Source of the DNA: a bacterium | GTDB lineage: Bacteria > UBA8248 > JACPRG01 > G963555815 | Length of the DNA stretch: 64,000 nucleotides | Direction: 5' to 3' | Assembly: GCA_965261595.1 (NCBI GenBank) | Contig: CBDHDG010000002.1 | Location: 160,001-224,000, forward strand | Part shown: positions 11,643 to 64,000 of the stretch, in pieces | Position numbering within the stretch: position 1 is the first letter of the stretch | How the letters are laid out: the number at the start of each line of letters is the position of its first letter | The notes under the pieces: generated by a model | The model's database searches: none | Told to the model about the DNA's origin: nothing | Seen by the model: the letters and a program-made list of their open reading frames with translations, nothing else | Program-made: the position numbers and the translations under genes

Positions 11643-12197
11643 ATGGCGCGGATCCGAGAAGCGGACCCATCGGCCGCTCCGCCGGAAATCCAAAAGATCT
11701 TCGAGGAGCAAACAGAGACTTACGGGGAGGTGTTGAACTCCTATCTGATTTCCAGCCACAGGCCCTCCATCCTCCTCGCCAACCAGGCCTTCGGGGGGGC
11801 GATCGAAGAATCGGGGCTGCTCCCGGTGGGGCTGCGGACGCTTCTGAACGTCCGGGTGGCGCAGATCAACGGATGCCCCTTCTGAGCGGACTCCAATTCA
11901 TTCCGTGGAATGAACAGCGGAGAAGACGCGGAGAAGTTTCTCTCGGTGGACCGGTGGCGCGAAAGCGGCCTCTATAGCCGCAGAGAGCGGCTCGCGCTGG
12001 AGGCGGCCGAGGGGATGACGGTCGCGGAGGTCGATGTGAGCGACGACCTCTTCGGGGAGCTGCGGGCCGAGTTCACCGACGAGGAGCTCGTCGAGCTGGC
12101 CGCCGTGATTGCCCTGGAGAACTACCGGAGCAAGTTCAATCACTTCTTCCGGGTCGAGGCCAACGGGCTCTGCAAATGGGAGCCCCCGGAAGCCTGA
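11643..12197 (+). CDS. AhpD/carboxymuconolactone decarboxylase-like probable selenoprotein (CPFU; TGA at 11883-11885)
   Basis: Track ORFs 11616-11885 and 11910-12197 share a frame and are separated only by TGA; RVAQINGCPF-TGA-AD matches the AhpD CxxC motif; hairpin downstream. Confidence 0.85.
11891..11922 (+). promoter_or_regulatory. Candidate bacterial SECIS element
   Basis: Upper stem TTCATTC/GAATGAA with loop CGTG starting 11 nt after TGA; lower stem CTCC/GGAG. Confidence 0.7.
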
Positions 12198-12225
12198 CAC
12201 CTTCGGGGAAGCCGGCCGGGGCGCG

Positions 12226-13068
12226 TCACGGCCGCTCTTTGTAGCGCCGGATGGACAGGACCTTGACATCGCCCAGGGGCTTGGCCCCCGATCCGACCTT
12301 CACATCGCCGATCCGCTCCACGACGTCCATCCCCTTGATCACCTTGCCGAATACGGTGTGCTTTCCCGTGAGCCAGGGGGTGTCCACCAGGTTGATGAAG
12401 AACTGGGACCCGTTGGTGTCGGGGCCGGAGTTGGCCATGGCGATGACCCCCTTTTTCGGGGGGTGCGACCCGCGGGTGTCGTTGTACCGGTAACCCAGGT
12501 TTTGATAAGCCTCCTTCAGGGTGAGGGTTTCGAGCCTCCCCTGTATCTCTTCGATCTTTTGCTTGATTCGTTCTTTCGACCGGATGCCCATGGACCGGAG
12601 CAAGGGAGAGAGCAGGACCCTTTGGAAGTCCCGTTGGTTGCGCACCATCAGAAATCGATGGGGTTGTCCCGGTTGACCGCTGTAGGCCTTCATGTTGTGG
12701 AGGCCGAGGGCGTCGGCGTTGATCTCGTCCGGTATCCGATACCCCGGACCCCCGGTTCCGGTCCCCTTGGGATCGCCCCCCTGGAGCATGAAGTTTTTGA
12801 TGACCCGGTGGAAAATCGTGTTGTCGTAGTAGTGCCCTTTGGCTTTGCCGCCGGTCTTCGGATCCGTGTACTCCTTCTTCCCTTCCGCCAAATCGAGGAA
12901 GTTCGCCACCGTCCCGGGCGTTTCCCGGATGAAGAGCTCCACGTAAATATCGCCGAGACTCGTCCGGATGAGCGCGACGGGATTGCGGGGATCCTCCAAC
13001 TGAAGTCCCGCGGCCGTTCCAGGCAGGGCCGAGAAGAGGAACAGGGCAATCGTCAGGATGAATTTCAT
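12226..13068 (-). CDS. Cyclophilin-type peptidyl-prolyl cis-trans isomerase, secreted, with internal insertion
   Basis: [51 protein letters not shown]. Confidence 0.92.
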   Translation of the reverse strand: [280 protein letters not shown]

Positions 13069-13628
13069 TTTTTCAGGCTCCCGGTTGAGGCCGAGTGGAG
13101 AGCGGCAAATCGGTCATTCGGCGATCGGAGGGCCGGCGGTTTTCCCGCCGGGACCCTTTCATCGGCCCGGCCATGACCGCGCCGTCTAAAATACAGGGAA
13201 CCGGATTGCGGTTCAATCAGGCGCCAGGTCAGCGTAAAGGTTCATTTTCGTCAGGGGATGGTGAAATTCCGGTGAATCATTTCGTTCAAATTTAAAATCA
13301 GATCCTCTCCTTCCACTCGGATTTCAGGAAGAATCGTAAACTTTTGTCAAGGCAGCTCCTGTTCATGGCGAAAATAAAGCAAGCCGCCGCCTCCTTTGAA
13401 TTCCTGGTTAACCGGGAGGCCTGGTTATGGTCTGTTGTTCGAAGGATTTCGAAATCCTGCTAATCTGGAAGGATAGCTTGAATAGGCTGAGAGGACTTAG
13501 AATCGGGTAATACGAGGAACGAAATCCGGCCAGCTTAGAATTCTTCAAGGAGTGAAACGTATGAGCTGACCCCGACCAACTCTTTTCGTCCTTCCGACAA
13601 TCCAGGAATATTCCCCTTAGGGAGGGGT

Positions 13629-15032
13629 TCCCCCGCTCTAGGGTTTTGTTGGACACTCGATTGATCCATGATTCATGGAGAAAGGGGTGTCGCGATGAAC
13701 GAACAAAAGCAAGAGGGGGCTTTGGCGGAGGGCGCCCGCAGGGCGAACGGAGCCAAGGCCCCAGGGCATCGCAGTGAGCGGGGTCGGTTCTCCTGCCAGC
13801 GCAAGCGGGAGGCGGTCCTGCGTCTTTTGCGGGGCGAGAGCCTGGAGACGCTCTGCCGCGAGTTGGGCACGACAGCGGCTCGGCTTTCCGCCTGGCGCGA
13901 GGCGTTCCTTCGCGGGGGCGAGGCGGCGCTCAAAGCTCGCCCGGCGGATGAGCGGGACGAGGAGAACGCCCGGCTCAAGGCCAAGGTGGGCGAACTCACG
14001 ATGGAGGGCGAGGTCCTGCGGGAGAAGATCGACCGCCTGGAGGCCGGCCGCCCTTTAGCCGGCAGGAGGTGGAGGCGATGAGTCAGGCCCGCTTCACCTC
14101 CACGGGCAGAGCCTACGGCCTGAAGCGGGTGTGCGCCCTTTGGGGCTTGGCGCGCTCCACGGTCTACGCGCAACGGCGGCGAGAGGCGGTCCCCGTTCAT
14201 GAACGCCCCACGCCCAATAAGCGCGGCCCTGTGGGCCCGTGCACCGATGCGGAACTCCTCGGTCACATCCGGCAGGTCCTGGAGGACTCTCCCTTCCATG
14301 GCGAGGGCTACCGCAAGGTGTGGGCGAGGCTGCGCTTCGCGGGCATCCGCACCAGCAAGGAGCGGGTGCGTCGCCTGATGCGGGAGGCGGGGCTTCAGGC
14401 CCCCCACCGGGTGGGCAAACCCCGAGGTCCCAAGGCCCACAACGGGACCATCCGCACCGAGCGGCCCGACCGAATGTGGGGCACGGACATGACGACGACG
14501 GTGACCACCGAGGAGGGGATGGCCTCGGTGTTCGCGGCGGTGGATCACTGCTCGGTGGACTGCGTGGGGATCCATGCGGCCAAGAGCGGCAACCGCTTCG
14601 AGGCCCTGGAGCCGATCCGGCAGGGGGTCGCCGAGCGCTTCGCCGGCTTGGAGGCGGACGTCGCCGAGGGGCTTAAAGTTCGTCACGACCACGGCCCCGC
14701 CTATCTGTCCGATGACTTTCAGCGGGAGATCGCCTACCTGGGCATGACCAGTTCGCCCAGCTTCGTGCGGGCGCCCGAGGGAAATGGCTACTGTGAGTGG
14801 TTTATCCGCATCTTGAAGGAGAATCTCCTGTGGGTGCGCTCTTTCGCCACCGTAGAGGAACTGCGGTGGGCGCTGCTTGAGTTCAAGAACCTGTACAACC
14901 ATCATTGGATTCTCGAGGGCTACGGCTACCGAACGCCGGCCCAGGCAAGGCAGGAAAAACTCGCTCAAGTTGCGGAGGCCGCATGAGGTCGAATACCCTC
15001 ACCCGAGTGTCCAATAACCCAGGGGCGGTCCA
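13629..15032 (+). mobile_element. IS3-family element type A, copy 1 (1404 bp; orfA 13668-14081, orfB 14069-14986)
   Basis: IRs TCCCCCGCTCTAGGGTTTTGTTGGACACTCG / CGAGTGTCCAATAACCCAGGGGCGGTCCA; TSD GGGT; integrase core WGTD...HDHG...GNGYCE. Confidence 0.95.
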
Positions 15033-15075
15033 GGGTCTTTGTAAACCGGTTCAACGAATTGAAGATTTCCGAACT

Positions 15076-16753: not shown

Positions 16754-16818
16754 CCTCACGCATACTCCTCAACGCAATGATCACTTGGGCGGGAGAATGG
16801 ACCCGCAGCTCAGACGCT

Positions 16819-16843
16819 GGATTCCCGCCTGCGCGGGAATGAC
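16819..16843. repeat. REP-like palindrome GGATTCCCGCCTGCGCGGGAATGAC
   Basis: ATTCCCGC-CTGC-GCGGGAAT hairpin of the ATTCCC-N8-GGGAAT type. Confidence 0.6.
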
Positions 16844-17028
16844 GGCTCGGGGTGGACGTTCCCCTGTTCTCACGATTCCCGGGGCCGCACGGCCGATGAA
16901 AACTGGGGATCACTGGGCAGATCCGATCTGCACACCCTACATTCCCCTGTGTACCACTTCGGCTTGTCCGCCGGTTTGGGGAATGACCGTTTTGGAGACC
17001 CGACCCTCCCCCTCCCCCCCCTCCGGCT

Positions 17029-19522: not shown

Positions 19523-19554
19523 TCGCTTGATCCGCGTCTTCGCAAGGCCATCGA

Positions 19555-21063: not shown

Positions 21064-22707
21064 TCAGTCGTCGATGGCCAGGATTTTTAGAAACCCCGTC
21101 GGGCGATCGGGCAAGACCAGGTTCCTGCTCACGCCCCAAAGCTCGTCCGTGTGGAGGAGCCAGAGCCGGACCGCGTCCTTCGCCAGGATTTCCTGAAGCT
21201 CGTCGTAGATCCGCTTTCGCTTCTTGCGGTCGAATGTCCGCGCCCCTTGCTTGATCAGGGCGTTCACCTTGGGGTTTCGATACCCGGTCTTGGACCGCCG
21301 GGGGTCATACCCCTCCAAGGCCACGTCAGGCGAGATCATGAGGCTGTTCGGGTGAAGGTGGGAGAAGGCGTCGTATTTCCTCCTGAGATAAAACTTGAAG
21401 TATGCGGTGACGAACGTCAGGCGCTTGAGTTTCACGTCCATCCCCACCGCTTTGAGCATCGGGATGGCGGCCTGGGCGATGATGGCCGACGCCCGGCTGG
21501 ATGCCACTATCCAGGTGAAGCCGAGTCTTTTTCCGTCCTTGACGCGGATGCCGTCCGGGCCCGCTTTCCAGCCGGCCTCCTCCAGGAGCGCCTTGGCCTT
21601 CCCTGGGTTCCCGTCGAAGATGGACACGTTCTTATTGTAGGCCCAAGAGAGGGGGTGGAAGGGGCTGTTGGCGATGGTCCCCCAGCCTTTGAATATATGC
21701 TTCAGGATGGCCTTTCGGTCGATGGCGTAGCTGATGGCCCGCCGCACCCTCACGTCCTGGAAGATGGGGTTTTTCAGGTTCAGGTCCATGTACCAGTTGG
21801 ATTGGCCGGACATGCGGACGCCCCGGCAGCATGCGTCCCGGCTCACGTTTTTGAATTCATCCACGGGCACCGCGGCATAGAGTCCGTTGACGTTCAACGC
21901 CCCCGTCCGCAAGGCGGCCAACCGGCTGAACGAATCGGGTGTGGTCCGCCAGATGACGGTCTCGATCTTGGGCTTCTTTCCGAAGTAGTCCGGATTCCGC
22001 CGAAGGACCGTCCGGTCGCGGGACTTCCAGGATACGAAAGCGTACGGACCGGTCCCGATGGGCTTGTGCGTGAAGGCGTGCTTTCTCATGGCCTTCACGG
22101 GAACGTTGCCGAGAATGTGTTTGGGGACAATGGGATGGATCGTCGAGATCATGAGGAAGGGCGAATAAGGCTCTTTGAGCCGGATCCTGATCCGGTGCGG
22201 TCCCAGGACCTCGATCCCCTTTATCGAATCGGCTTTCCCCGCCCGATATTCGGCGGCGCCCAGAATGCTTTCGTAGTAGCGGGAATGGCCGAAGCCCGCG
22301 GGGTTGTCCTTCTGCATCAGAACTTCGAAGGTGAATTTGACGTCCTCGGCCGTGAAGGGTTTCCCGTCGTGCCATTTCACCCCCTTGTGGAGGTTGAACG
22401 TGTAGGTGAGCCGGTCCTTGCCGACCGTCCAGGATTCGGCCAGGTCCCCCTCCGGCGCCATCATTCCGGCGGGCTTGGTCAGGCCGTTGAAGACCATGTT
22501 CTGCCAGTACGTCACGCTGGAGAGGCGGAAGATGGCCGGGTTGGCGATCCGGAACAGGTCGCTCGCCGAGGCGATAACGACCGTCCCCTTGGTCTGGGCG
22601 GCGGAGACGCCAACGCCGGAGACGCCAACGCCGTAGACGCTCAGGATGGACAAAAGGATCAAACCGAATCGAATGAAGGGCCAAAGACCCCGGTAACCAC
22701 GCTTCAT
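21064..22707 (-). CDS. ABC transporter substrate-binding protein (family 5, peptide/nickel-like)
   Basis: LAESW, YTFNLHKGVKWHDGKPFTAEDVKFTF, PIGTGPY, VRRAISYAIDR. Confidence 0.92.
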   Translation of the reverse strand: MKRGYRGLWPFIRFGLILLSILSVYGVGVSGVGVSAAQTKGTVVIASASDLFRIANPAIFRLSSVTYWQNMVFNGLTKPAGMMAPEGDLAESWTVGKDRLTYTFNLHKGVKWHDGKPFTAEDVKFTFEVLMQKDNPAGFGHSRYYESILGAAEYRAGKADSIKGIEVLGPHRIRIRLKEPYSPFLMISTIHPIVPKHILGNVPVKAMRKHAFTHKPIGTGPYAFVSWKSRDRTVLRRNPDYFGKKPKIETVIWRTTPDSFSRLAALRTGALNVNGLYAAVPVDEFKNVSRDACCRGVRMSGQSNWYMDLNLKNPIFQDVRVRRAISYAIDRKAILKHIFKGWGTIANSPFHPLSWAYNKNVSIFDGNPGKAKALLEEAGWKAGPDGIRVKDGKRLGFTWIVASSRASAIIAQAAIPMLKAVGMDVKLKRLTFVTAYFKFYLRRKYDAFSHLHPNSLMISPDVALEGYDPRRSKTGYRNPKVNALIKQGARTFDRKKRKRIYDELQEILAKDAVRLWLLHTDELWGVSRNLVLPDRPTGFLKILAIDD

Positions 22708-22761: not shown

Positions 22762-25552
22762 CTAAACGAAATTCTCCAGGAATACCTCTCCCTCGCCCAC
22801 CGGCCGTACCCTCTCGAAAAGCGCCCGGTCGGCGGGTCTTTTCAGGGACGGCTTGGTGGCGTCGATTCCCATGACCCCGGGGCTGTAAGCGTCGGTCACG
22901 CCCGCGCGGTCTTCGCGGCCCGCCTCGGGGGTTGAAGGGTCGAGCTTGTACCCCCGAGTTCCTTCCACGGTGATGATATCCCTGGCCGGATTGACCCGGA
23001 AGCTCATGGCCCATAACACGTCCTTGGGGTCATGGATGTCCACATCGTCGTCCACCACCATGACGACCTTGATTTGGCGATGCAAACCCATGGCCGCCAG
23101 CAGCACGGCCCTGGAATGCCCTTCGAACTCCGGGACCATCTGAACAATGGCCGTCAGCCCCGCCCAGTCCGGGATGTGTACATCGAGGATGCGGGTCCCG
23201 CCGTGAACCTCCTGAAGGTTCCGGTAGGTCCGGACCTCATTGAGGAAGGTGGAAAGGACCTGAAGGTCCGTGAAACGCGATGCGTTGAGGTGGCGGTAAA
23301 TGGCGTCCTTCCGCATCGTGATGGTCTTGACCTCGAAGACCGGGGATTGCCCGATCGGTCCCATGTACCCGGTGTATTCGCCGAAGGGCCCCTCCGTTTC
23401 CCGGACCTTCGGGGGGACGATCCCCTCGATGACGATCTCGGCCCCCGCGGGCACCCGCAGATCGACGGTCTCGCACCGGACGAAATCCACAGTCTCCTCC
23501 AGCAGGGAAGAGGCCAGCTCAAACTCCTCGAATCCGGGGTGCGCGGCGGTGAACGTGCTTGCGATCTCGTAAGCGGGATGGTGGCCGATGACCACGGCCA
23601 TCGGCATGGGCTCGCCCGCCTTCTCGTATTGGGTGTAGTGCGCCCATCCCGTCCGCCTGCCGACGGCGAATCGGGCCCGGTTTCTGCCGGTGACCTGGAT
23701 GCGGTAGAAGGCCTGGTTCTGAATTCCGGTGGAGGGGTCCTTGGTCACGCACATGCCGGCGCCGATGTATCGGCCGCCGTCGCCCTGGCTGTGAATGCCC
23801 ACCTCCCCCGCTCTAGGGTTTTGTTGGACACTCGATTGATCCATGATTCATGGAGAAAGGGGTGTCGCGATGAACGAACAAAAGCAAGAGGGGGCTTTGG
23901 CGGAGGGCGCCCGCAGGGCGAACGGAGCCAAGGCCCCAGGGCATCGCAGTGAGCGGGGTCGGTTCTCCTGCCAGCGCAAGCGGGAGGCGGTCCTGCGTCT
24001 TTTGCGGGGCGAGAGCCTGGAGACGCTCTGCCGCGAGTTGGGCACGACAGCGGCTCGGCTTTCCGCCTGGTGCGAGGCGTTCCTTCGCGGGGGCGAGGCG
24101 GCGCTCAAAGCCCGCCCGGCGGATGAGCGGGACGAGGAGAACGCCCGGCTCAAGGCCAAGGTGGGCGAACTCACGATGGAGGGCGAGGTCCTGCGGGAGA
24201 AGATCGACCGCCTGGAGGCCGGCCGCCCTTTAGCCGGCAGGAGGTGGAGGCGATGAGTCAGGCCCGCTTCACCTCCACGGGCAGAGCCTACGGCCTGAAG
24301 CGGGTGTGCGCCCTTTGGGGCTTGGCGCGCTCCACGGTCTACGCGCAACGGCGGCGAGAGGCGGTCCCCGTTCATGAACGCCCCACGCCCAATAAGCGCG
24401 GCCCTGTGGGCCCGTGCACCGATGCGGAACTCCTCGGCCACATCCGGCAGGTCCTGGAGGACTCTCCCTTCCATGGCGAGGGCTACCGCAATGTGTGGGC
24501 GAGGCTGCGCTTCGCGGGCATCCGCACCAGCAAGGAGCGGGTGCGTCGCCTGATGCGGGAGGCGGGGCTTCAGGCCCCCCACCGGGTGGGCAAACCCCGA
24601 GGTCCCAAGGCCCACAACGGGACCATCCGCACCGAGCGGCCCGACCGAATGTGGGGCACGCACATGACGACGACGGTGACCACCGAGGAGGGGGTGGCCT
24701 CGGTGTTCGTGGCGGTGGATCACTGCTCGGTGGACTGCGTGGGGATCCATGCGGCCAAGAGCGGCAACCGCTTCGAGGCCCTGGAGCCGATCCGGCAGGG
24801 GGTCGCCGAGCGCTTCGCCGGCTTGGAGGCGGACGTCGCCGAGGGGCTTAAAGTTCGTCACGACCACGGCCCCGCCTATCTGTCCGATGACTTTCAGCGG
24901 GAGATCGCCTACCTGGGCATGACCAGTTCGCCCAGCTTCGTGCGGGCGCCCGAGGGAAATGGCTACTGTGAGTGGTTTATCCGCATCTTGAAGGAGAATC
25001 TCCTGTGGGTGCGCTCTTTCGCCACCGTAGAGGAACTGCGGTGGGCGCTGCTTGAGTTCAAGAACCTGTACAACCATCATTGGATTCTCGAGGGCTACGG
25101 CTACCGAACGCCGGCCCAGGCAAGGCAGGAAAAACTCGCTCAAGTTGCGGAGGCCGCATGAGGTCGAATACCCTCACCCGAGTGTCCAATAACCCAGGGG
25201 CGGTCCACACCGGCAGAGCCTGGAGATCGATGTCTTCGCCCCGTATGCGGACCTCCTTCACCGGCCCGTCTTCGACGATGCGGCTTTCCCCGCGCCCCCG
25301 GGCGATCCGGGTCCCCGCGTCTTGGAGCAGCCTGTCGGACGTCGTGCGCAAGGCGGCGGCCTGGAGCTTCCGCGCGCCGAGGAGACGGTCGCAGACCCGC
25401 CAATCGGGATGGCCCTTGATATTCTCGAAGAGGATGGGTCCCCCGCTCTGGGAGCAGAGGGCGCCGAGCTCAGTCAGGGGATCGACCTCCTTATGGATCC
25501 GCAACACCTCGATGTCGATCTCATCGAGAAACGTCCTCAAATCGCTGCCCAT
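22762..25552 (-). pseudogene. UbiD family (de)carboxylase interrupted by IS type A
   Basis: Removing the IS and one CACC restores ...DLQALPVGIHSQGDGGRYIGAG...EGPFGEY...GIDAT in frame. Confidence 0.92.
23804..25207 (+). mobile_element. IS3-family element type A, copy 2
   Basis: 1404 bp, TSD CACC; orfA 23843-24256, orfB 24244-25161 with WGTD changed to WGTH. Confidence 0.95.
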
Positions 25553-29507: not shown

Positions 29508-29591
29508 GCCGAGATGAGGAGGGGGGGGCCGTCAGCCGATTCGCGGGTTTTTGAGGGGCCCATCCCGCCGGGAGAAAAAGGGGGAAAGCCG

Positions 29592-30200
29592 ATGTTCGAT
29601 GTGCTGAAGGGAATCCTGGTGCGGTACCGGGAAGCCAAGCGGGTGCACGCGGAGAAGGTCGCGCAGCTCATCGCGGAGCATTCCCGTGAAATCTTCTCCG
29701 ATCCGGACTCCCCCATTGCGGGCAACCCGGAAGGGGACGTTACGATCACCCATTTCCTGGATTATCGCTGACCCCACTGCAAGACCCTCGGTCCGAGGAT
29801 CGCGGAATTCGTGAAGGAGGATACGGGCGTTCGGTTCGTCTTGAAGGAGCTGCCCCTGCTGGGCGATTGGTCCCTGCTCGCCTGCCGGGCGGCGCTGGCC
29901 GCAAAGGCCCAGGGCGCGTATGACCGGATCAACCTGGAGCTCTTCCGCGTCAAGGGCGGGAACCGGGAGCGGAAAGTCATGGACCTGGCGGCGGGGCTCG
30001 GCCTGGATATGGAGCGTTTTCAAGCAGACCTGGAGAGCGCGGCGTCCGACGCCGTCATCGAGCGCAACAAGGTCCTCGCGAAGACCCTCGGGGCCTGGAA
30101 AACCCCTTCCATGGTGGTCGGCGATCGAATCAGGATCGGCGGCGCGAAAGTGAAACACCTCCGGGAAATCGTCGCGGGCTTGCGGGCCGGGCCGGTATGA
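29592..30200 (+). CDS. DsbA/thioredoxin-fold probable selenoprotein (UPHC; TGA at 29769-29771)
   Basis: GNPEGDVTITHFLDYR-TGA-PHCK...KELPLL...TPS; track ORFs 29514-29771 and 29811-30200 share a frame; TGA sits at the first Cys of the DYxCPxC motif. Confidence 0.88.
29777..29805 (+). promoter_or_regulatory. Candidate bacterial SECIS element
   Basis: CTGC-aa-GA-c-CCTCG-[GTC]-CGAGG-a-TC-GCGG hairpin; upper stem begins 14 nt after TGA, loop begins with G. Confidence 0.7.
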
Positions 30201-35017: not shown

Positions 35018-35094
<77 letters not shown>

Positions 35095-35100: not shown

Positions 35101-35695
35101 TCAAGGGGTTGCGGCGATTGCCGTGACCCTTTCTTTTTGCTTGGTGTCCATATAGGTGTCCAGTCGATTGATTGCGGCCTCCTTATGGTCGAGGGCAAGG
35201 TGGGCGTAGCGGAGGGTCATTTCAAGCCTTTTGTGGCCCAGGAATTCCTTCACCGTCATAAGGTCCACCCCCGACATAACCAGGTGGGAAGCGAATGTGT
35301 GGCGGAGGTCATGAAACACAAAGCCCTCGATTTTCGCCTCCCGCAAGGTCCGAATGAATCGCTTCTTGATGTCCACCAAGCCGTTGCCGGTTTTCCCCGG
35401 AAAGACATATGGGGAATCCAGGCGGCGGGGGATGCCCCGAAGGGTCTGCCGCAAAGTGTCGCTCATGGGGATTTCCCGCCTTTCCCCGTTCTTTGTGTCT
35501 ACCACCCGAATGACCCCATTCTGAAAGTCCAGGTCCTCCCATTGGAGCGAGAAAAGCTCTCCCCGCCTAAGTCCAGTATAGATGGCCGTTATCAGGATGG
35601 GCTTTAACACGCCGTCGGCAACCGATAGCAGTCTTTCAATTTCCTCGTATTCCAGGTAGCGGAGCCTCCGGTTGTTCACCCTTAAAGGCCGGATG
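35101..35695 (-). pseudogene. Tyrosine recombinase/integrase, N-terminus removed at IS
   Basis: TGLRRGEL, TKNG, FHDLRHTFAS, LGHK..MTLRYAHL catalytic motifs; fused to the IS end. Confidence 0.92.
35106..35138 (+). terminator. Rho-independent terminator after the tRNA
   Basis: GGGTTGCGGC-GATT-GCCGTGACCC followed by TTTCTTTTT. Confidence 0.75.
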
Positions 35696-37099: not shown

Positions 37100-37510
37100 G
37101 GCTCTCTCTACGCGAAAGATTCAGCCGGAAAGACGCGGGTTAGGCTCGGTGGGTCAGATGGCAGTGTCAGAGGATACAACAAAGCCGGAATAGCGCGGCT
37201 TGTACTCTATGGGTCCAAGGGCCGTGTCGTTGTGAACGACTCAGCCGGAAAGGCGCGGGTTAAGCTCGTTGGGTGGGATGGCAGTGTCAGAGCATACGAC
37301 TCAGCCGGAAAGGGGCGGATCTGGCTCGTTGGGCAGAATGGCAATGTCAGAGTATACGACAAAGCCGGAAAGAAGCGACTTAGTCTCCATGGTAACAGTG
37401 GCTCTCTCTACGCGAAAGATTCAGCCGGAAAGACGCGGGTTTCGCTCGATGGGACAACCGGAAAGGTCTTTTTCACTGCTCCAAACGGCAAAACGATTTC
37501 TCATCCCTAA
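37100..37510 (+). pseudogene. 3' remnant of a 20-aa (60-bp) tandem-repeat protein
   Basis: About six units GxvxayDsAGKxRvxLxGxd; first and sixth units identical over 42 nt. Confidence 0.75.
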
Positions 37511-40441: not shown

Positions 40442-42499
40442 CTAAATCCGGATCACTTCCCGGTTCTTTTCCGCGTTCGGCCAGGCGCCATAGAACTTCA
40501 GGGCCTGCGGGTGCGGCCGCTTCTTCGACCACTCCTCGACGAACTCATGATAGGGTTTTCCGCGGGCGAGACGGTTTTCCCGTTCCGCTTTTCGCAGGCG
40601 CTCGGTCTCCTCGACGTCCACCTTGAGGGTCTCCCGGTTGTAGGCGACTTTGTACACGTTCTCGGCCGTCCAGTGGGTGAGGGCCTTGGCGCGCAGGTCC
40701 CTCATGACCTTCTCGGCCGGCCGCTCCAGGACGTCCCCGTATCCGCTGGCGCCCTGGGTGCTCGAGGTGATGACCTCCCCCCGTTTGACAATGCGGGCGG
40801 GGCGGGTCTGGTGCTCGCGGATAATCTTGCCGCCGAACGGGTTTCGCTCCAGGATGTCGTGGTCGTTATCGGGCAGAGGCATCTTGCCGTCCTTGAGCAG
40901 GGCGAGTACGTCGGTGTCCACCACCCGGATGGCCGGGACCACGGTTTGGGAGTAGCCGCCGAATAGGCCGCACGTTGTGGGGAACTTGGACTCTTTGGCC
41001 GTTGCGGTGAACACGGCGTAGGGCGCTTGGTGGACCGTGTAGGCCACCGTCAAGCCGATCCCCCCCCGGAACTTGCCGTACCCCCCGCTGTCCGGCATGG
41101 ACTTCTGATACAGGTGAAGCACCGGGAAGGCCCGCTCGACGTCCTCCACGTCCGGGCCCTTGCCCCAGGGCGCATGGGGAAACCCGAAGACGTCCACGCC
41201 GTCCTCGCCGTACCTCGCGGCCAACCCCCAGGCGTTGAGGGGGAAAGCCATGAAGTCGACGATTTTGGCGCCGTGCTGGTTGACGCAGGTGATCATGGGC
41301 GCGGCCGAGTTGGACGAGGCGAAACCACACACCAGGTCGCGCTGCGGGCTTTCGAACATCATCTTGGAGAAGACGACCGCCAACAGCGGAAACACCGCGG
41401 AGGCGGTGATGGGCGAGCAGGAGATGGCGGCCTCCGGGTCCGGGTCCATGATCGTGCCGAACGGGATGATGTAATCGATGGGATCCATCGAACCGGCGGA
41501 GATGGGGAAATCGTGAAAGGGAAATTCATAGAGGTAGTGGGCGCAATGGGCCCGAACGCACGGGGCCAGGGACTGGAAGCTGCCTTCATGCTCCGGAGAG
41601 GTCCCGGTGAGATCGATCGTGATCCGGTCCCCCTTTTTGTGAAGGGCGATGGGCACGCGAAGCAGCGAGGTCTCTGATCCCGTGGTGTCGATGAAGACCA
41701 CGTGGCGGTAAGTCCCGTCGTTCCACTCCTGAATTCGTTTGCGGGCACCGTCCGCGGACTCCTTGATTTGTCTGAGGAACAGGGTCGCCAAAAACCGGTT
41801 GCCCTTCTTCTTGGCCAGGTTCTGCATCCGAATCCGAATCCGGTCGCAGGCCGCCACGCGGGCCTTGACGTCCGTCACCTGCATGCGTGGCGCCCGCGAC
41901 ATGAAGTTCTCCATCATTTTCAACAGGTCGGCCTTGAGCTGGTACCCTTCGCCGATCTTGATGGGGGTGAGCTTCATGCCCTCGTCATGCCGGGTGATGG
42001 CCGTGGTGATCTCGCCGCCGGGCTCCTTTCCGCCGGTCTCCGATTAGTGGGCGCCGACGACCGTCCACGCGACGAGCTCGCCTTCGCTGAAGATGGGCAT
42101 GATCGCGAACTGGTCGGGGTTGTGGATGCCGCCGTAGATGGCTTCGTTGCAGTAGTAGACATCCCCCTCATTGACCTGGACCGTCGGATCATCTTTGAAG
42201 TACTTAATGATGAACTTGACCGGAATCTGCCCGGTGACGGTGTGCAGGTACGTGCCGCAGACCGAAGTGACCAGATCGCCGTCGGCCGTATAAATCCCCG
42301 CCATCGAATCGCCCGAATGGAGCATGCTGGAAATGCCCATTTTGGTCATCACGGCCTTGCCCTCTTCAACGATCAGGACAAGGTTCTCCGCGTAAATCTC
42401 GTAATCGCCCGGCGCCATGGCCTCGATGGACTTCATCGCCTCCCGGGTGGCGTGTGAAGGCTTCAGGCCCTGCTCAATCAGATCAATATCGAAAGACAT
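40442..42499 (-). pseudogene. Hydantoinase B/oxoprolinase family (acetophenone carboxylase ApcD-like) with an in-frame TAA
   Basis: ORFs 42044-42499 and 40442-41977 share a frame: ...HNPDQ...VGAH-TAA-SETGGKEPGG...; GYGKFRGG motif. Confidence 0.85.
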
Positions 42500-52197: not shown

Positions 52198-53808
52198 CGG
52201 CGGCTTGGGGTATTATGAACATCATCCGCCGTCAGGCGTTCCATTCCGACTTCGACGAATTCATCCTGTGCTTCGAGACTTGGCGGACTAAGTTTCCCCA
52301 CGACCCGCCGGTGAGCACCACTGGACCGCCCCTGGGTTATTGGACACTCGGGTGAGGGTATTCGACCTCATGCGGCCTCCGCAACTTGAGCGAGTTTTTC
52401 CTGCCTTGCCTGGGCCGGCGTTCGGTAGCCGTAGCCCTCGAGAATCCAATGATGGTTGTACAGGTTCTTGAACTCAAGCAGCGCCCACCGCAGTTCCTCT
52501 ACGGTGGCGAAAGAGCGCACCCACAGGAGATTCTCCTTCAAGATGCGGATGAACCACTCACAGTAGCCATTTCCCTCGGGCGCCCGCACGAAGCTGGGCG
52601 AACTGGTCATGCCCAGGTAGGCGATCTCCCGCTGAAAGTCATCGGACAGATAGGCGGGGCCGTGGTCGTGACGAACTTTAAGCCCCTCGGCGACATCCGC
52701 CTCCAAGCCGGCGAAGCGCTCGGCGACCCCCTGCCGGATCGGCTCCAGGGCCTCGAAGCGGTTGCCGCTCTTGGCCGCATGGATCCCCACGCAGTCCACC
52801 GAGCAGTGATCCACCGCCACGAACACCGAGGCCACCCCCTCCTCGGTGGTCACCGTCGTCGTCATGTCCGTGCCCCACATTCGGTCGGGCCGCTCGGTGC
52901 GGATGGTCCCGTTGTGGGCCTTGGGACCTCGGGGTTTGCCCACCCGGTGGGGGGCCTGAAGCCCCGCCTCCCGCATCAGGCGACGCACCCGCTCCTTGCT
53001 GGTGCGGATGCCCGCGAAGCGCAGCCTCGCCCACACCTTGCGGTAGCCCTCGCCATGGAAGGGAGAGTCCTCCAGGACCTGCCGGATGTGGCCGAGGAGT
53101 TCCGCATCGGTGCACGGGCCCACAGGGCCGCGCTTATTGGGCGTGGGGCGTTCATGAACGGGGACCGCCTCTCGCCGCCGTTGCGCGTAGACCGTGGAGC
53201 GCGCCAAGCCCCAAAGGGCGCACACCCGCTTCAGGCCGTAGGCTCTGCCCGTGGAGGTGAAGCGGGCCTGACTCATCGCCTCCACCTCCTGCCGGCTAAA
53301 GGGCGGCCGGCCTCCAGGCGGTCGATCTTCTCCCGCAGGACCTCGCCCTCCATCGTGAGTTCGCCCACCTTGGCCTTGAGCCGGGCGTTCTCCTCGTCCC
53401 GCTCATCCGCCGGGCGGGCTTTGAGCGCCGCCTCGCCCCCGCGAAGGAACGCCTCGCGCCAGGCGGAAAGCCGAGCCGCTGTCGTGCCCAACTCGCGGCA
53501 GAGCGTCTCCAGGCTCTCGCCCCGCAAAAGACGCAGGACCGCCTCCCGCTTGCGCTGGCAGGAGAACCGACCCCGCTCACTGCGATGCCCTGGGGCCTTG
53601 GCTCCGTTCGCCCTGCGGGCGCCCTCCGCCAAAGCCCCCTCTTGCTTTTGTTCGTTCATCGCGACACCCCTTTCTCCATGAATCATGGATCAATCGAGTG
53701 TCCAACAAAACCCTAGAGCGGGGGACCACCATCGAGGATTCGACCGTTCCCCTGCCCGTGCCGGGGGCGACGCTCGTTCTGGACCTCTGGGCCTATCTAC
53801 CGTGACGC
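52198..53808 (+). repeat. Diverged duplicate (about 200 bp) of the RidA gene 3' end, split by IS type A copy 4
   Basis: 52198-52321 plus 53730-53808 align with 51272-51473 with few substitutions. Confidence 0.9.
52322..53725 (-). mobile_element. IS3-family element type A, copy 4 (reverse orientation)
   Basis: 1404 bp, TSD CCAC; orfA 53273-53686, orfB 52368-53285. Confidence 0.95.
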
Positions 53809-55752: not shown

Positions 55753-57019
55753 TCCCCCGCTCTAGGGTTTTGTTGGACACTCGATTGATCCATGATTCAT
55801 GGAGAAAGGGGTGTCGCGATGAACGAACAAAAGCAAGAGGGGGCTTTGGCGGAGGGCGCCCGCAGGGCGAACGGAGCCAAGGCCCCAGGGCATCGCAGTG
55901 AGCGGGGTCGGTTCTCCTGCCAGCGCAAGCGGGAGGCGGTCCTGCGTCTTTTGCGGGGCGAGAGCCTGGAGACGCTCTGCCGCGAGTTGGGCACGACAGC
56001 GGCTCGGCTTTCCGCCTGGCGCGAGGCGTTCCTTCGCGGGGGCGAGGCGGCGCTCAAAGCCCGCCCGGCGGATGAGCGGGACGAGGAGAACGCCCGGCTC
56101 AAGGCCAAGGTGGGCGAACTCACGATGGAGGGCGAGGTCCTGCGGGAGAAGATCGACCGCCTGGAGGCCGGCCGCCCTTTAGCCGGCAGGAGGTGGAGGC
56201 GATGAGTCAGGCCCGCTTCACCTCCACGGGCAGAGCCTACGGCCTGAAGCGGGTGTGCGCCCTTTGGGGCTTGGCGCGCTCCACGGTCTACGCGCAACGG
56301 CGGCGAGAGGCGGTCCCCGTTCATGAACGCCCCACGCCCAATAAGCGCGGCCCTGTGGGCCCGTGCACCGATGCGGAACTCCTCGGCCACATCCGGCAGG
56401 TCCTGGAGGACTCTCCCTTCCATGGCGAGGGCTACCGCAAGGTGTGGGCGAGGCTGCGCTTCGCGGGCATCCGCACCAGCAAGGAGCGGGTGCGTCGCCT
56501 GATGCGGGAGGCGGGGCTTCAGGCCCCCCACCGGGTGGGCAAACCCCGAGGTCCCAAGGCCCACAACGGGACCATCCGCACCGAGCGGCCCGACCGAATG
56601 TGGGGCACGGACATGACGACGACGGTGACCACCGAGGAGGGGATGGCCTCGGTGTTCGTGGCGGTGGATCACTGCTCGGTGGACTGCGTGGGGATCCATG
56701 CGGCCAAGAGCGGCAACCGCTTCGAGGCCCTGGAGCCGATCCGGCAGGGGGTCGCCGAGCGCTTCGCCGGCTTGGAGGCGGATGTCGCCGAGGGGCTTAA
56801 AGTTCGTCACGACCACGGCCCCGCCTATCTGTCCGATGACTTTCAGCGGGAGATCGCCTACCTGGGCATGACCAGTTCGCCCAGCTTCGTGCGGGCGCCC
56901 GAGGGAAATGGCTACTGTGAGTGGTTTATCCGCATCTTGAAGGAGAATCTCCTGTGGGTGCGCTCTTTCGCCACCGTAGAGGAACTGCGGTGGGCGCTGC
57001 TTGAGTTCAAGAACCTGTA
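55753..57019 (+). mobile_element. IS3-family element type A, copy 5 (3'-truncated by copy 6)
   Basis: Left IR present; orfB ends KNLY at the copy 6 junction. Confidence 0.93.
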
Positions 57020-58423
57020 TCCCCCGCTCTAGGGTTTTGTTGGACACTCGATTGATCCATGATTCATGGAGAAAGGGGTGTCGCGATGAACGAACAAAAG
57101 CAAGAGGGGGCTTTGGCGGAGGGCGCCCGTAGGGCGAACGGAGCCAAGGCCCCAGGGCATCGCAGTGAGCGGGGTCGGTTCTCCTGCCAGCGCAAGCGGG
57201 AGGCGGTCCTGCGTCTTTTGCGGGGCGAGAGCCTGGAGACGCTCTGCCGCGAGTTGGGCACGACAGCGGCTCGGCTTTCCGCCTGGCGCGAGGCGTTCCT
57301 TCGCGGGGGCGAGGCGGCGCTCAAAGCCCGCCCGGCGGATGAGCGGGACGAGGAGAACGCCCGGCTCAAGGCCAAGGTGGGCGAACTCACGATGGAGGGC
57401 GAGGTCCTGCGGGAGAAGATCGACCGCCTGGAGGCCGGCCGCCCTTTAGCCGGCAGGAGGTGGAGGCGATGAGTCAGGCCCGCTTCACCTCCACGGGCAG
57501 AGCCTACGGCCTGAAGCGGGTGTGCGCCCTTTGGGGCTTGGCGCGCTCCACGGTCTACGCGCAACGGCGGCGAGAGGCGGTCCCCGTTCATGAACGCCCC
57601 ACGCCCAATAAGCGCGGCCCTGTGGGCCCGTGCACCGATGCGGAACTCCTCGGTCACATCCGGCAGGTCCTGGAGGACTCTCCCTTCCATGGCGAGGGCT
57701 ACCGCAAGGTGTGGGCGAGGCTGCGCTTCGCGGGCATCCGCACCAGCAAGGAGCGGGTGCGTCGCCTGATGCGGGAGGCGGGGCTTCAGGCCCCCCACCG
57801 GGTGGGCAAACCCCGAGGTCCCAAGGCCCACAACGGGACCATCCGCACCGAGCGGCCCGACCGAATGTGGGGCACGGACATGACGACGACGGTGACCACC
57901 GAGGAGGGGATGGCCTCGGTGTTCGTGGCGGTGGATCACTGTTCGGTGGACTGCGTGGGGATCCATGCGGCCAAGAGCGGCAACCGCTTCGAGGCCCTGG
58001 AGCCGATCCGGCAGGGGGTCGCCGAGCGCTTCGCCGGCTTGGAGGCGGACGTCGCCGAGGGGCTTAAAGTTCGTCACGACCACGGCCCCGCCTATCTGTC
58101 CGATGACTTTCAGCGGGAGATCGCCTACCTGGGCATGACCAGTTCGCCCAGCTTCGTGCGGGCGCCCGAGGGAAATGGCTACTGTGAGTGGTTCATCCGC
58201 ATCTTGAAGGAGAATCTCCTGTGGGTGCGCTCTTTCGCCACCGTAGAGGAACTGCGGTGGGCGCTGCTTGAGTTCAAGAACCTGTACAACCATCATTGGA
58301 TTCTCGAGGGCTACGGCTACCGAACGCCGGCCCAGGCAAGGCAGGAAAAACTCGCTCAAGTTGCGGAGGCCGCATGAGGTCGAATACCCTCACCCGAGTG
58401 TCCAATAACCCAGGGGCGGTCCA
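57020..58423 (+). mobile_element. IS3-family element type A, copy 6
   Basis: 1404 bp; a GCTC duplication flanks the copy 5+6 tandem; orfA 57059-57472, orfB 57460-58377. Confidence 0.95.
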
Positions 58424-58645
58424 GCTCAGCCAAAAATTTTTCTTCTTTCAGCAGCCGCCATCACCCTAATGGTCTTTTCTTTAGATAGCGCGTCGATGAG
58501 AATCTCAGAGATGTACCGAGTGAAATTAGTTTCTCTCTGATCAATATTCTGTATAGAGAGAACTAGGACCCGTTTCCCAGTCAGCAACCCTTTCATCGCC
58601 TGTACAAAGCGTGGTCCTAGGTCCCGGATGGAAATTGGGTGGATG

Positions 58646-59915: not shown

Positions 59916-60160
59916 GATGCGCATAGAAGGTCGCTTCTCGCTTAAAGACACCATGTCCAAGGGGAGAAGGACAGGATTGGAGACGGTCTGCGCACTTGAT
60001 CTTAGGATCCAGACACTCACGAGGCTCTCCGTCTTTGGGTCGACTTTCGGTAGGATAATCCTATACCAACCCGTCTTCTCTTTGAACGCCAGGAAGCGAG
60101 CTCTTTTTTTCAATACTGTCCTTAAGCCGGAATTTAGATTGGGGTTTGTAAAGGCAGGTG

Positions 60161-61564
60161 TCCCCCGCTCTAGGGTTTTGTTGGACACTCGATTGATCCA
60201 TGATTCATGGAGAAAGGGGTGTCGCGATGAACGAACAAAAGCAAGAGGGGGCTTTGGCGGAGGGCGCCCGCAGGGCGAACGGAGCCAAGGCCCCAGGGCA
60301 TCGCAGTGAGCGGGGTCGGTTCTCCTGCCAGCGCAAGCGGGAGGCGGTCCTGCGTCTTTTGCGGGGCGAGAGCCTGGAGACGCTCTGCCGCGAGTTGGGC
60401 ACGACAGCGGCTCGGCTTTCCGCCTGGCGCGAGGCGTTCCTTCGCGGGGGCGAGGCGGCGCTCAAAGCCCGCCCGGCGGATGAGCGGGCCGAGGAGAACG
60501 CCCGGCTCAAGGCCAAGGTGGGCGAACTCACGATGGAGGGCGAGGTCCTGCGGGAGAAGATCGACCGCCTGGAGGCCGGCCGCCCTTTAGCCGGCAGGAG
60601 GTGGAGGCGATGAGTCAGGCCCGCTTCACCTCCACGGGCAGAGCCTACGGCCTGAAGCGGGTGTGCGCCCTTTGGGGCTTGGCGCGCTCCACGGTCTACG
60701 CGCAACGGCGGCGAGAGGCGGTCCCCGTTCATGAACGCCCCACGCCCAATAAGCGCGGCCCTGTGGGCCCGTGCACCGATGCGGAACTCCTCGGCCACAT
60801 CCGGCAGGTCCTGGAGGACTCTCCCTTCCATGGCGAGGGCTACCGCAAGGTGTGGGCGAGGCTGCGCTTCGCGGGCATCCGCACCAGCAAGGAGCGGGTG
60901 CGTCGCCTGATGCGGGAGGCGGGGCTTCAGGCCCCCCACCGGGTGGGCAAACCCCGAGGTCCCAAGGCCCACAACGGGACCATCCGCACCGAGCGGCCCG
61001 ACCGAATGTGGGGCACGGACATGACGACGACGGTGACCACCGAGGAGGGGATGGCCTCGGTGTTCGTGGCGGTGGATCACTGCTCGGTGGACTGCGTGGG
61101 GATCCATGCGGCCAAGAGCGGCAACCGCTTCGAGGCCCTGGAGCCGATCCGGCAGGGGGTCGCCGAGCGCTTCGCCGGCTTGGAGGCGGATGTCGCCGAG
61201 GGGCTTAAAGTTCGTCACGACCACGGCCCCGCCTATCTGTCCGATGACTTTCAGCGGGAGATCGCCTACCTGGGCATGACCAGTTCGCCCAGCTTCGTGC
61301 GGGCGCCCGAGGGAAATGGCTACTGTGAGTGGTTCATCCGCATCTTGAAGGAGAATCTCCTGTGGGTGCGCTCTTTCGCCACCGTAGAGGAACTGCGGTG
61401 GGCGCTGCTTGAGTTCAAGAACCTGTACAACCATCATTGGATTCTCGAGGGCTACGGCTACCGAACGCCGGCCCAGGCAAGGCAGGAAAAACTCGCTCAA
61501 GTTGCGGAGGCCGCATGAGGTCGAATACCCTCACCCGAGTGTCCAATAACCCAGGGGCGGTCCA
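60161..61564 (+). mobile_element. IS3-family element type A, copy 7
   Basis: 1404 bp, TSD GTG; orfA 60200-60613, orfB 60601-61518. Confidence 0.95.
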
Positions 61565-62343
61565 GTGTGTTTGTTCTGACGAAGATCCGCTCGGGGACTG
61601 TTTGGCAATCATAAACTGCAACCAGCTTATTCTCCGTCCAAGTTGAGGTGCCCCGGGTCACAGTTTTTTTGCTCGTGTCAACGAGATATATCCCATCTTC
61701 CTGAAGGTATTTCTCGATGCGGCCCGGCACCGCTGGTCGGCTTTCCCCTAATTCGTAACCCGATTCCAATTTCGCCTTACGATTTACTATCACTAAGGTC
61801 TGAAAACCTGACTTGGCAGGAAAAAACAGCAAGACCTGGGCAAAGGTAACCATAGAATTCTGGAACCTCACATCGCTAACGATCCGCACGTTGCTCTTTT
61901 TGAACTGATGGCGAAGAGAGTCTTGGATGGAATTAGACAACAGGAGTCCTCCCTTCACTCTCATAGTACTTTTTACAGAGACTCCAGATTTTCTTTCTGC
62001 AATGCTCTTGATCAGCTTTATGAGGAGACCGAGTTGGGTTTCTCGAATGATCTCGGCAGACGGAGCATAAGCAAACGACCTAGCGAACTTGCAGGGGAAG
62101 TCACTTGCGGCAAGCGCGGGAGATGCCAAAACAGAGGCAGTCGAAGAGAACGTTACGGTCAATGCAACCCAGAGCCAGCGGCACATCGTTTTCGCCTTCT
62201 TTTGTGGCCTGTAGCGAAAAGCGGAAATTTCCCATTTCACCTCTTGATGGAGGCATGGTCTGCTCGCATAGCCGTGTGAAGCGATTTCAACTCATTTCAT
62301 CTGCGCTGTCAACAATTGGGCGGGAATCGGGGGGACACCATAC

Positions 62344-62669
62344 TTATTTCTGCTTATCCCCCCTTTTTCGCCCTGGCTTCTGCCGTTGCAGGATACGACC
62401 CAATGCCTCTTCAAGGTTTCCGACAAAACCGTCATTTCCCAAGGGTCTGCCTGTCCTCAAGCCTTCCTCGGATTGCGGAACCAGAATCAGATGCACGTGG
62501 TTAGGCATCAGGCAGTAGGCCCAGGCCTGCACTCTCCAGCGGGGCGCCACGCAGACATTAGGCGGATGGAGTCCTCATAATCCTCTTCACAGAAAAAGGT
62601 CTCCTGCCCGCGATTGCCCCGCTGAGTGACGGGTAAGCCTGGCGCCACAACCCGTGCGATTCTTGGCAT
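62344..62669 (-). pseudogene. REP-associated tyrosine (HUH/Y1) transposase remnant
   Basis: MPRIARVVAPGLP-VTQRGN...AYCLMPNHVHLI...RTGRPLG; frameshift and large internal deletion; flanked by a 15-bp IR (62332-62346, 62708-62722). Confidence 0.8.
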
Positions 62670-62901
62670 GTGGCGACACGATGGCGGCGCAAGCGAAAGT
62701 CAAGAATTAAGTATGGTGTCCCTGGAATCCTGTTTACACACCAGCGCGGCATGGTTTTCCCATGGCGGACTCCGGTGAAATCGGGGTTTCAGGAGCCCGA
62801 AATGGAGTTGACGGGTCCGGTAGAGAGGGGTCTAATCGGGCTAAACAGCAACGAGGGGTAGGCACGGGTCTGTCCGGATTTGAAATGGGAAGTTCCTGTA
62901 T

Positions 62902-64000
62902 ATGGGAAATCCAAGAGTCAAGGGGGTTAACGTGGGTAAGAGGGTTCTTCCCAGAGATGCAGCTTCCATAGAGGCCCTTCAAGACCCCGAAATTGAGGGA
63001 TACTTTCGGGAATCCCACCGCTTCAGCACTCCCGCTCCGTACAAGCTGATGCTTCTGGCCCAGGCCCCGAGCACGCTCAAGGCTTGGGCCCGGTTCTGGT
63101 GGGCGGTCTTTCGGAGAAACCCGATGGAGCATACCTTCATGGAGCTCCTCCGGGTTCATATTGCGCGTAATATCTTTTGCGAGTTCTGAGCAGACCAGCG
63201 GTCTGCCTTGGCAAGGCAGAGCGGCCTTACTGAGGAAAAGCTTGAAGGCCTATGCGATCTCGATGGCGGGGATTTTTCCGAGAGAGAGCGTGCGGGCCTT
63301 CAATTTGTTCAGGAGTTCACTGTAGACTTCGACGGAGCAAGGCCATTTTTAGAGGCGCTCGCGCCCTACTTCACGCGTGCAGAGATTGCCGAAATCACCA
63401 TATTTGCGGCCTGGCAGGCGAACGGCCTACGAACCATCCATTCTTGGGACGCGCATGAATTCCTGAATTCGCCGGATGTCCCTCTCCCTTACGCGGACGG
63501 GCCTTCACTATTCGTCCGCGACGACAACTCGATGGCTGGCAGCGTGGCGGCCGAACATCTCCAAAACGATCTACCCAGTTTCCCACCGTTCGACCGCGAA
63601 CCCCTTCCTGATGCGGAATCCATCTGGAACGCGTGGGAAAAACTTGGAACCCCCCCGAGGGCCTGGCTGGAATTTCTCTCCGCTTCGCCCCGCGCCCTCT
63701 GGGGTTGGGCGGAGTTCCACCAGTTGACCTATGAGGAGGGGGTGCTCCGCCGTTCGTTCAAAGCAAAGGTCTTGGCGAGGCTCGCCGACCTTGTCGATGT
63801 TCCATCCTGGCTGCAGGTTGAGCGCAACGCTCAAGCCCCTGAGGTTGACGATCGGTTGCATATTGCCCTTCGGTATGCGGAAGACCTCTTTGATGATTAT
63901 TTGGGTGTTGGGGACGAGGATTACCGAACGCTTCACAAGCATTTCAGAGAGGCCGAGGTGATGGAGCTTGGCAATTTCATTGGAATGCAGATTGGGAGTC
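62902..64000 (+). CDS. Two-domain AhpD/CMD-like probable selenoprotein (CEFU; TGA at 63187-63189), partial at window end
   Basis: ELLRVHIARNIFCEF-TGA-ADQRS...FSERERAGL...FTRAEIAEI; frame stays open for 270 codons after the TGA. Confidence 0.82.
63195..63224 (+). promoter_or_regulatory. Candidate bacterial SECIS element
   Basis: TCTGCCTT-[GGC]-AAGGCAGA 8-bp stem starting 12 nt after TGA; loop begins with G. Confidence 0.72.

Follow-up and report, generated by a model that had tools for sequence, protein, structure and literature searches.

AhpD-like and CMD domain-containing selenoproteins with the motif CxxU and DsbA-like selenoproteins with the motif UxxC, in which U stands for selenocysteine (Sec), first became known from metagenome data of the Sargasso Sea (PMC1088965). 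AhpD-like, CMD (CxxU) and DsbA-like form 1 proteins (UxxC, PF01323) are also tabulated as selenoproteins in PMC13188914, where TIGR01926 is given as the model for 'AhpD-like protein'. The same source names DUF3179, cation-transporting ATPase, deiodinase-like, Grx, GrdA and GrdB proteins as known selenoprotein families, and reports large selenoproteomes of 57 genes and, as a prediction, of 63 genes in a metagenome-assembled genome (MAG) of Methylomirabilota. Its model for the bacterial selenocysteine insertion sequence (SECIS), the bSECISearch consensus as summarised in the legend of its Fig. 2, has an apical loop of 3-9 nt with G as first or second nucleotide, an upper stem of 4-16 bp, a UGA-to-loop distance of 16-37 nt and a minimum free energy (MFE) of at most -7.5 kcal/mol. 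Here we describe three genes of an uncultured bacterium that each contain one in-frame TGA and very probably encode selenoproteins of the AhpD/CMD-like and DsbA-like kind. They are located on a stretch of 64,000 nucleotides (contig CBDHDG010000002.1 of assembly GCA_965261595.1, positions 160,001 to 224,000 of the forward strand). This whole stretch is called the window, and all positions refer to it unless a contig (C1 to C7) is named.

The active-site tetrad of E. coli DsbA is C-P-H-C, and the first Cys of the DsbA motif is the exposed one. In AhpD of M. tuberculosis the second Cys of the motif is the nucleophile. Sec would hold the first of these positions in gene 2 of the window (U-P-H-C) and the second in genes 1 and 3 (C-x-x-U).

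Three Genes with One In-Frame TGA in a Redox Motif

The original prediction for this DNA had placed one in-frame TGA each at 11883, 29769 and 63187, on a Cys of a CxxC-type motif, and this was confirmed by position, by frame and by Pfam matches that span the TGA. Gene 1 (11643..12197, forward strand, 184 codons, own stop TGA at 12195-12197) encodes a predicted AhpD/CMD-like selenoprotein with the active site GCPF-U. The predicted Sec codon (11883..11885, forward strand) is codon 81 counted from the ATG at 11643 and takes the second position of the motif. The read-through product was matched by Pfam CMD in one stretch across the TGA (42.6 bits, cut-off 23, E 5.9e-11) and passed the cut-off of the AhpD core model TIGR00778 (28.5 versus 27.8 bits), so that gene 1 is above both curated cut-offs for the CMD/AhpD family (PF02627, TIGR00778). 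On both sides of the TGA the flanks had their best coding score in the frame of the gene. Scores for two more specific models remained under the cut-off: 43.6 bits for TIGR01926 (peroxidase-related enzyme, cut-off 81.8) and 151.2 bits for NF053654 ('YciW-related (seleno)protein', equivalog cut-off 310). Residues 1-178 align on positions 1-178 of the 179 positions of the NF053654 model (E 2.4e-44). Because the score is below half of the equivalog cut-off, gene 1 is, judged by the models, a sister subfamily of NF053654 and not a member. A partial match to gene 1 with 76% identity was present in a MAG labelled Methylomirabilota. No conserved neighbour was found in the neighbourhoods of the gene 1 orthologues, which therefore give no operon-based hint of a partner.

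Gene 2 (29592..30200, forward strand, 202 codons, own stop TGA at 30198-30200) encodes a predicted DsbA-like selenoprotein with the active site U-PHC, and its ATG at 29592 is preceded by GGGGGAAAG. The predicted Sec codon (29769..29771, forward strand) is codon 60 counted from this ATG and comes first in the CxxC-type motif. Both Thioredoxin_4 (63.2 bits, cut-off 23.2, E 4.3e-17) and DSBA (57.1 bits, cut-off 25.6, E 2.7e-15) matched the read-through product in one stretch across the TGA. The gene thus combines a PF01323 match above the cut-off with a UxxC motif (U-P-H-C), which are the two features of DsbA-like form 1. With 42.3 bits it was under the cut-off of 190 for NF041057 (Rcas_1661 thioredoxin-like (seleno)lipoprotein), and inspection of the N-terminus, by eye alone, revealed no obvious signal peptide or lipobox. 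As for gene 1, the flanks on both sides of the TGA scored best in the frame of the gene. Contigs from three runs of three studies span 29769-29771, and no other letter was listed there; one of the runs may be the source sample itself.

Gene 3 (62902..64000 onward, forward strand) encodes a predicted two-part CMD-like selenoprotein with the active site CEF-U. It has 376 codons counted from the ATG at 62902 and runs off the window, with its TGA stop 30 nt beyond the end (window-equivalent 64030-64032). Judged by the AAGGGGG that precedes it, the GTG at 62932 is the likelier start, and the predicted Sec codon (63187..63189, forward strand) is codon 96 from the ATG or 86 from the GTG. Pfam CMD matched the read-through product in one stretch across the TGA (25.6 bits, cut-off 23, E 1.2e-5). 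The score for NF053654 was 55.6 bits (cut-off 310), and TIGR01926 gave no match. Gene 3 failed the codon-usage filter, yet its sequence is conserved across the TGA in relatives. Its C-terminal half is without Cys and, by eye, looks like a degenerate second CMD-like domain; a search of 60 relatives gave only one full-length orthologue. A little upstream of gene 3, on the reverse strand, lies a short open reading frame (ORF) with internal TGAs (62344-62703), which by eye resembles an IS200-type transposase fragment.

Conservation of the TGA Codon and Cysteine Counterparts

Homologues were searched in 60 related genomes and in the genome itself. Exactly one in-frame TGA was present in each of the best 33 matches to gene 1 and in each of the best 38 matches to gene 3. 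For gene 2 the TGA was found in the three closest matches, which are from its own genome, from the same genus (90% identity) and from the same family (53%); one of the three holds a second TGA. The sister-family homologues of gene 2 (about 40% identity) have no TGA. When the loci were aligned, the TGA column was shared by 12/12 loci for gene 1 (44-95% identity), by 3/3 for gene 2 and by 14/14 for the family of gene 3, and in the fetched loci the TGA was retained down to about 25-45% identity. Further TGA-bearing DsbA-like loci of relatives all had their TGA in the column of gene 2 (15/15).

The counterpart of the TGA in Cys-type relatives is cysteine. In the sister-family DsbA homologues of gene 2 a Cys stands in the TGA column in 11/11 cases (C-G-F/Y/H-C). 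Named public genomes provided 18 loci for the gene 1 column, 4 with TGA, 13 with TGC/TGT and 1 unaligned at that place, the Cys count being biased upward by one search pattern that required Cys there. The CxxU of gene 1 aligns on the CxxC of the CMD/AhpD-fold structures 2gmy and 7xw1, and the U of gene 3 on the second Cys of the CxxC in 2ijc and 2o4d. All three genes thus show what is expected of a selenoprotein gene, namely an in-frame UGA within a conserved ORF, with coding sequence on either side, and homologues that have Cys or Sec in its place. The original prediction had proposed to align read-through products with homologues: the pairing of Cys and TGA was seen, and wherever the homologues aligned over the column the residue was Cys or Sec.

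Predicted SECIS Elements Downstream of the TGA Codons

A hairpin with a G-containing loop had been predicted 11-14 nt after each TGA, and this was found as described: the hairpins start 11 nt (gene 1), 11-14 nt (gene 2) and 13 nt (gene 3) after the TGA and have the loops CGUG, GUC and GGC, respectively. Applied by hand, the constraints of the bacterial SECIS model are satisfied by all three, with loops of 3-4 nt, stems of 5-8 bp, a spacing of 18-20 nt and energies of -8.0 to -10.1 kcal/mol. Predicted SECIS 1 (11891..11922, forward strand) has a 7-bp core stem (11897-11903/11908-11914), the loop CGUG at 11904-11907 and a short outer helix, with -9.1 kcal/mol and 18 nt between UGA and loop. Predicted SECIS 2 (29777..29805, forward strand) consists of a 5-bp core stem (29786-29790/29794-29798) and the loop GUC (29791-29793); extended to 29783-29801 it has 8 bp including one mismatch, -10.1 kcal/mol and a spacing of 19 nt. 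Predicted SECIS 3 (63203..63219, forward strand) has a 7-bp stem, the loop GGC at 63210-63212, -8.0 kcal/mol and a spacing of 20 nt, and the wider region 63199-63224 folds with -15.5 kcal/mol.

The pairing of SECIS 1 and SECIS 3 is conserved in the alignments. For SECIS 1, 98.1% of the cells were paired, three pairs were compensated on both sides and 0/500 shuffles reached the score, while slid controls gave 38-69% paired cells. For SECIS 3 the values were 99.0% paired cells, four compensated pairs and 0/500 shuffles, with 31-66% in the slid controls. The SECIS 2 type of hairpin recurs in a fourth sequence (L086), and 14 others have family-typical hairpins at equal distance. The loop is fixed per protein family: CGUG for gene 1, GUC or GGN for gene 2 and GGC for gene 3. 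When the alignments were read against the reading frame, several compensations turned out to join an amino-acid replacement to a silent change at a third codon position; in gene 1, for instance, F/S (TTC/TCC) is paired with Gly (GGA/GGG). Constraint on the protein would by itself hardly account for such compensations. At the level of sequence comparison, our data demonstrate conservation of the codon, pairing of Sec with Cys, fit of the SECIS elements, their covariation in genes 1 and 3 and, as described below, presence of the machinery.

Selenocysteine Machinery and Genetic Code

The genes selA, selB, selC and selD, for which the original prediction had suggested a search, are all present in the genome. 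The selA gene (469 bits) is located at C6:190546-191652, and a SelB wing-3 domain, the only domain by which SelB was identified, lies in a 657-aa open frame just downstream, so that the selA/selB region comprises C6:190546-193683. The selD gene (330 bits) has an in-frame TGA of its own within A-G-G-U-G-S-K. A tRNA-Sec(UCA) was found by ARAGORN and scored 72.1 bits with Rfam RF01852 (cut-off 47). One family of insertion sequences (IS), with 187 copies of at least 98.9% identity and at least 1 kb, occurs on all 7 contigs and makes up about 4% of the genome; since it is common to all of them, it ties the contig of the window to the contigs with the sel genes. TGA is the main stop codon and terminates 3181/5025 model ORFs (63%), and genes 1, 2 and 3 each terminate in TGA as well.

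Proposed Read-Through and Alternative Explanations

Together with the recovery of the four sel genes, the conserved TGA, the pairing of Sec with Cys and the geometry of the hairpins and their covariation in genes 1 and 3 support the recoding with SECIS elements inside the coding sequence that had originally been proposed. Very probably, the three TGAs are Sec codons that are read through by means of such bacterial SECIS elements. In each mRNA a small hairpin would form after the UGA at a distance of 18-20 nt, and its apical loop would have G as first or second nucleotide. SelB, loaded with Sec-tRNA(Sec), would bind this hairpin, and the ribosome would incorporate Sec where translation otherwise ends. 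The resulting proteins would be thiol/selenol oxidoreductases, two of the AhpD/CMD fold (C-x-x-U) and one of the DsbA fold (U-P-H-C), and in each of them Sec would take the place of a Cys that forms the redox-active pair in Cys-type relatives. We infer the actual insertion of selenium at the UGA, the redox substrates and the expression in this strain from these comparisons.

Signs of decay do exist in the window: a Hydantoinase_B gene is broken by a nonsense TAA, IS copies are numerous, and one IS displaced the upstream region of gene 1. They would fit the view that the three TGAs end translation and that genes 1-3 are decaying pseudogenes, truncated or split. We consider this very improbable, since all fetched orthologues have the TGA in the same catalytic column and a protein sequence that is conserved before and after it, the hairpins of genes 1 and 3 covary, and the TAA, a true nonsense codon, is confined to this genome, with orthologues reading CAG. 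The SelB/SECIS route could also be used to decode UGA as Cys instead of Sec. A natural recoding from Sec to Cys by a tRNA-Sec-like tRNA(Cys) is described in some bacteria, and sequence data cannot distinguish the inserted residue. Intact selA and Sec-type selD genes, which make Sec-tRNA(Sec), and a tRNA that scores as canonical tRNA-Sec speak against Cys insertion in this organism, and we regard it as no less improbable than decay. Least probable of all is an error of sequencing or assembly that changed TGC/TGT to TGA, or a genetic code (code 4 or 25) in which every TGA is read as an amino acid. Nothing was found in favour of either; the same TGA is present in independent genomes, the contigs of the three studies agree at the TGA of gene 2, TGA is used as the stop of most model ORFs and of genes 1-3 themselves, and the aligned residue of homologues is Cys, neither Trp nor Gly.

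Several observations weigh against Sec insertion at the three TGAs or limit its support. All of the support comes from sequence comparison, and the RNA run that was checked had zero depth over 29564-29951, leaving the TGA of gene 2 uncovered. The genome is MAG-like, with an estimated contamination of 5.57%. Part of the Cys homologues of gene 1 were retrieved by the pattern that demands Cys. The CMD score of gene 3 is marginal: it passes in the protein scan with 25.6 versus 23 and falls short in the genome scan with 22.1. Regarding the hairpins, covariation of SECIS 2 was not significant (n=3 sequences, one compensated pair, 172/500 shuffles reaching the score), and single-sequence folding gave ordinary z-scores of -1.03, +0.86 and -1.52 for genes 1, 2 and 3. 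All hairpins lie within conserved coding sequence, so that their conservation is partly at the protein level, and the aligned sequences are related, with the structures derived from the same sequences. The MFE fold of gene 3 is a competing hairpin directly after the UGA (63190-63206), which shares nucleotides with the 5' arm of the SECIS and in this genome has a slight advantage in stability (-11.1 versus -9.5 kcal/mol); no such hairpin was seen in the other 13 downstream sequences.

A further point concerns gene 1, whose native upstream and ribosome-binding region is replaced by the end of an IS3-family element on the reverse strand (10400..11642, left end at or before 10400, with rve, HTH_21 and HTH_Tnp_1 domains). 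Copies of this element end at 11641 or 11642, that is 0-1 nt before the ATG. The orthologue of the same genus has a Shine-Dalgarno-like GGGAGAG upstream, which is missing in this genome. Because the IS end displaced the upstream region with this motif, gene 1 may be poorly expressed in this strain, while its coding sequence appears intact.

Candidate Selenoprotein Genes in the Genome

The claim that the organism is rich in selenoproteins is supported by at least 28-29 candidate genes in the genome: 29 including SelD, or 28 if two AhpC-TSA-type genes (on C1 and C7) are one locus. Ten of these candidates are of the CMD type. The original prediction had called for a scan for further sites with TGA and hairpin; the candidates given here come from matches to protein families and from redox motifs at the TGA. 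In the genome profile scan one TGA was present in 10/15 CMD matches and in 9/18 AhpC-TSA-type matches, and TGA was also found in 2/8 Thioredoxin_4 and 1/4 Glutaredoxin matches. No TGA was present in the genome's matches to Molybdopterin (0/13) or Thioredoxin PF00085 (0/5), and Rdx had no match in the genome. Read-through Pfam matches added GrdA, GrdB, a weak GrdB-like protein, a third DsbA-like protein, DUF3179 and an HMA domain as candidates. The HMA-domain candidate (G-M-H-U-G-G-C, C7:776453) is in frame with a P-type ATPase; further positions are C4:549320, C4:334054, C5:933587 and C6:972382-972558 (DUF3179, GrdA, GrdB, glutaredoxin). For 22 candidate sites the context was inspected, and U was at the expected catalytic place in all of them (CxxU, UxxC, TxxU or deiodinase-like T-U-P-P).

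A genome-wide count of motifs at in-frame stops with coding-like flanks showed that redox motifs at TGA, as in genes 1-3, exceed chance. CxxU was found at 25 TGA versus 2 TAG and 3 TAA, and UxxC at 40 TGA versus 7 TAG and 5 TAA. The total set comprised 1104 TGA, 477 TAG and 439 TAA, and there was no overall excess of TGA (1104 versus 916 TAG and TAA, with a stop usage of 3181 versus 1844). Only the motif-restricted counts are informative, because same-frame neighbouring genes dominate the set. A scan for motif and hairpin without a coding filter was too noisy to be used. When 19 CxxU/UxxC candidates were compared to Pfam, a domain spanned or abutted the TGA in 6, did not span it in 8, and no family was found in 5. 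Non-spanning candidates that were rejected are an M24 peptidase, ProB/NadD, DUF2232/L9, Prim-Pol, DUF5615, a ferredoxin and a Rieske protein; in the GRDB-like non-spanning case the domain ends 4 residues before the U, and it was kept as a weak candidate.

Two TGA-containing genes are located just before the window. An AhpD-like gene with C-P-Y-U (C2:154827-154994, reverse strand, TGA site C2:154883) lies 5.1 kb before its start, and a thioredoxin-fold gene with U-I-N-C (C2:159223-159591, forward strand, TGA site C2:159334) 0.7 kb before it. Counting the three genes of the window, a region of about 69 kb holds five candidates for selenoprotein genes. About 2 kb away from selAB there is a thioredoxin-fold gene of deiodinase-like type with T-U-P-P-F (C6:195632-195823, reverse strand), which has a second copy at C6:489819-490226. 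The thioredoxin-fold Sec genes at C1:25467-25838 and C7:368-667 have an identical context of 25 residues at the U; the C7 locus is at the contig start, and the identical pair may be due to assembly overlap or to recent duplication.

Decay and Mobile Elements in the Window

Two other premature stops outside Cys motifs, a TAA at 42044 and a TGA at 21064, had been put forward as an internal control against random decay. The first held up as a real nonsense codon in place of Gln, the second did not: 21064-21066 (reverse strand) is the normal stop of the gene for a 557-aa SBP_bac_5 solute-binding protein. The TAA (42044-42046) is in frame in a Hydantoinase_B/oxoprolinase gene (40442-42499, reverse strand), and the Hydantoinase_B Pfam match is one stretch across it (residues 32-589). 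Orthologues with 95% and 89% identity are uninterrupted and have CAG (Gln) at this site. The interrupted gene is probably a pseudogene of recent origin or a variant of this strain. This private nonsense codon contrasts with the conserved TGAs of genes 1-3.

The IS family with 187 copies in the genome is an IS3-type element with an ORF pair of 137 aa and 305 aa, and seven of its copies are in the window, at 13629-15033, 23804-25207, 35696-37105, 52317-53725 (reverse strand), 55753-57019, 57020-58424 and 60152-61574. Two other IS3-type families are multi-copy too. A tRNA-Met (35018-35094, forward strand) is followed by a gene of the phage integrase family (35104-35736, reverse strand) and then by an IS copy, and this region looks like an integration hotspot.

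Relation to Known Selenoproteins

Like the AhpD/CMD selenoproteins of the Sargasso Sea, genes 1 and 3 have a CMD/AhpD fold, a predicted Sec at the second motif position and a putative SECIS downstream inside the coding sequence. Gene 3 differs from them by the added Cys-less C-terminal half, and both genes differ from the curated AhpD/CMD selenoprotein models by falling under the specific cut-offs (TIGR01926, NF053654). With NF053654 (GroundWater_YciW) gene 1 is alike from end to end, the difference being the score below the cut-off. Gene 2 resembles DsbA-like form 1 in its DSBA/Thioredoxin_4 fold and in the first-position Sec, and is weakly related to the selenolipoprotein model NF041057. Compared to the bSECISearch consensus, the three hairpins are within all constraints and differ by their family-fixed loops and by the alternative hairpin of gene 3. 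On these sequence comparisons genes 1-3 are new members within known selenoprotein families and lie outside the specific curated models.

The predicted selenoproteome of this genome is large and dominated by thiol oxidoreductases, as are the record selenoproteomes of 57 and 63 genes, and has fewer candidates (28-29). The selenoprotein richness of the genome is high, yet not unprecedented. A wider reading, which we put forward only as a tentative possibility, is that Sec-type AhpD/CMD proteins were expanded far beyond the curated models in this lineage and throughout the class of its relatives, that gene 3 represents an undescribed two-part CMD subfamily (a CxxU domain and a Cys-less half), and that each subfamily has its own co-evolving SECIS type. 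It is based on the ten CxxU paralogues of this genome and on the TGA-bearing gene 1 matches in most of the relatives searched.

The known mechanism of Sec decoding and the list of Sec-using families are unchanged by our results. They add well-supported AhpD/CMD-like and DsbA-like members with predicted SECIS elements, which covary in genes 1 and 3, to these families and document a selenoprotein-rich uncultured bacterium. If an annotation took these TGAs for stops, no fewer than three redox enzymes of the window would be cut short, and probably about thirty in the whole genome.

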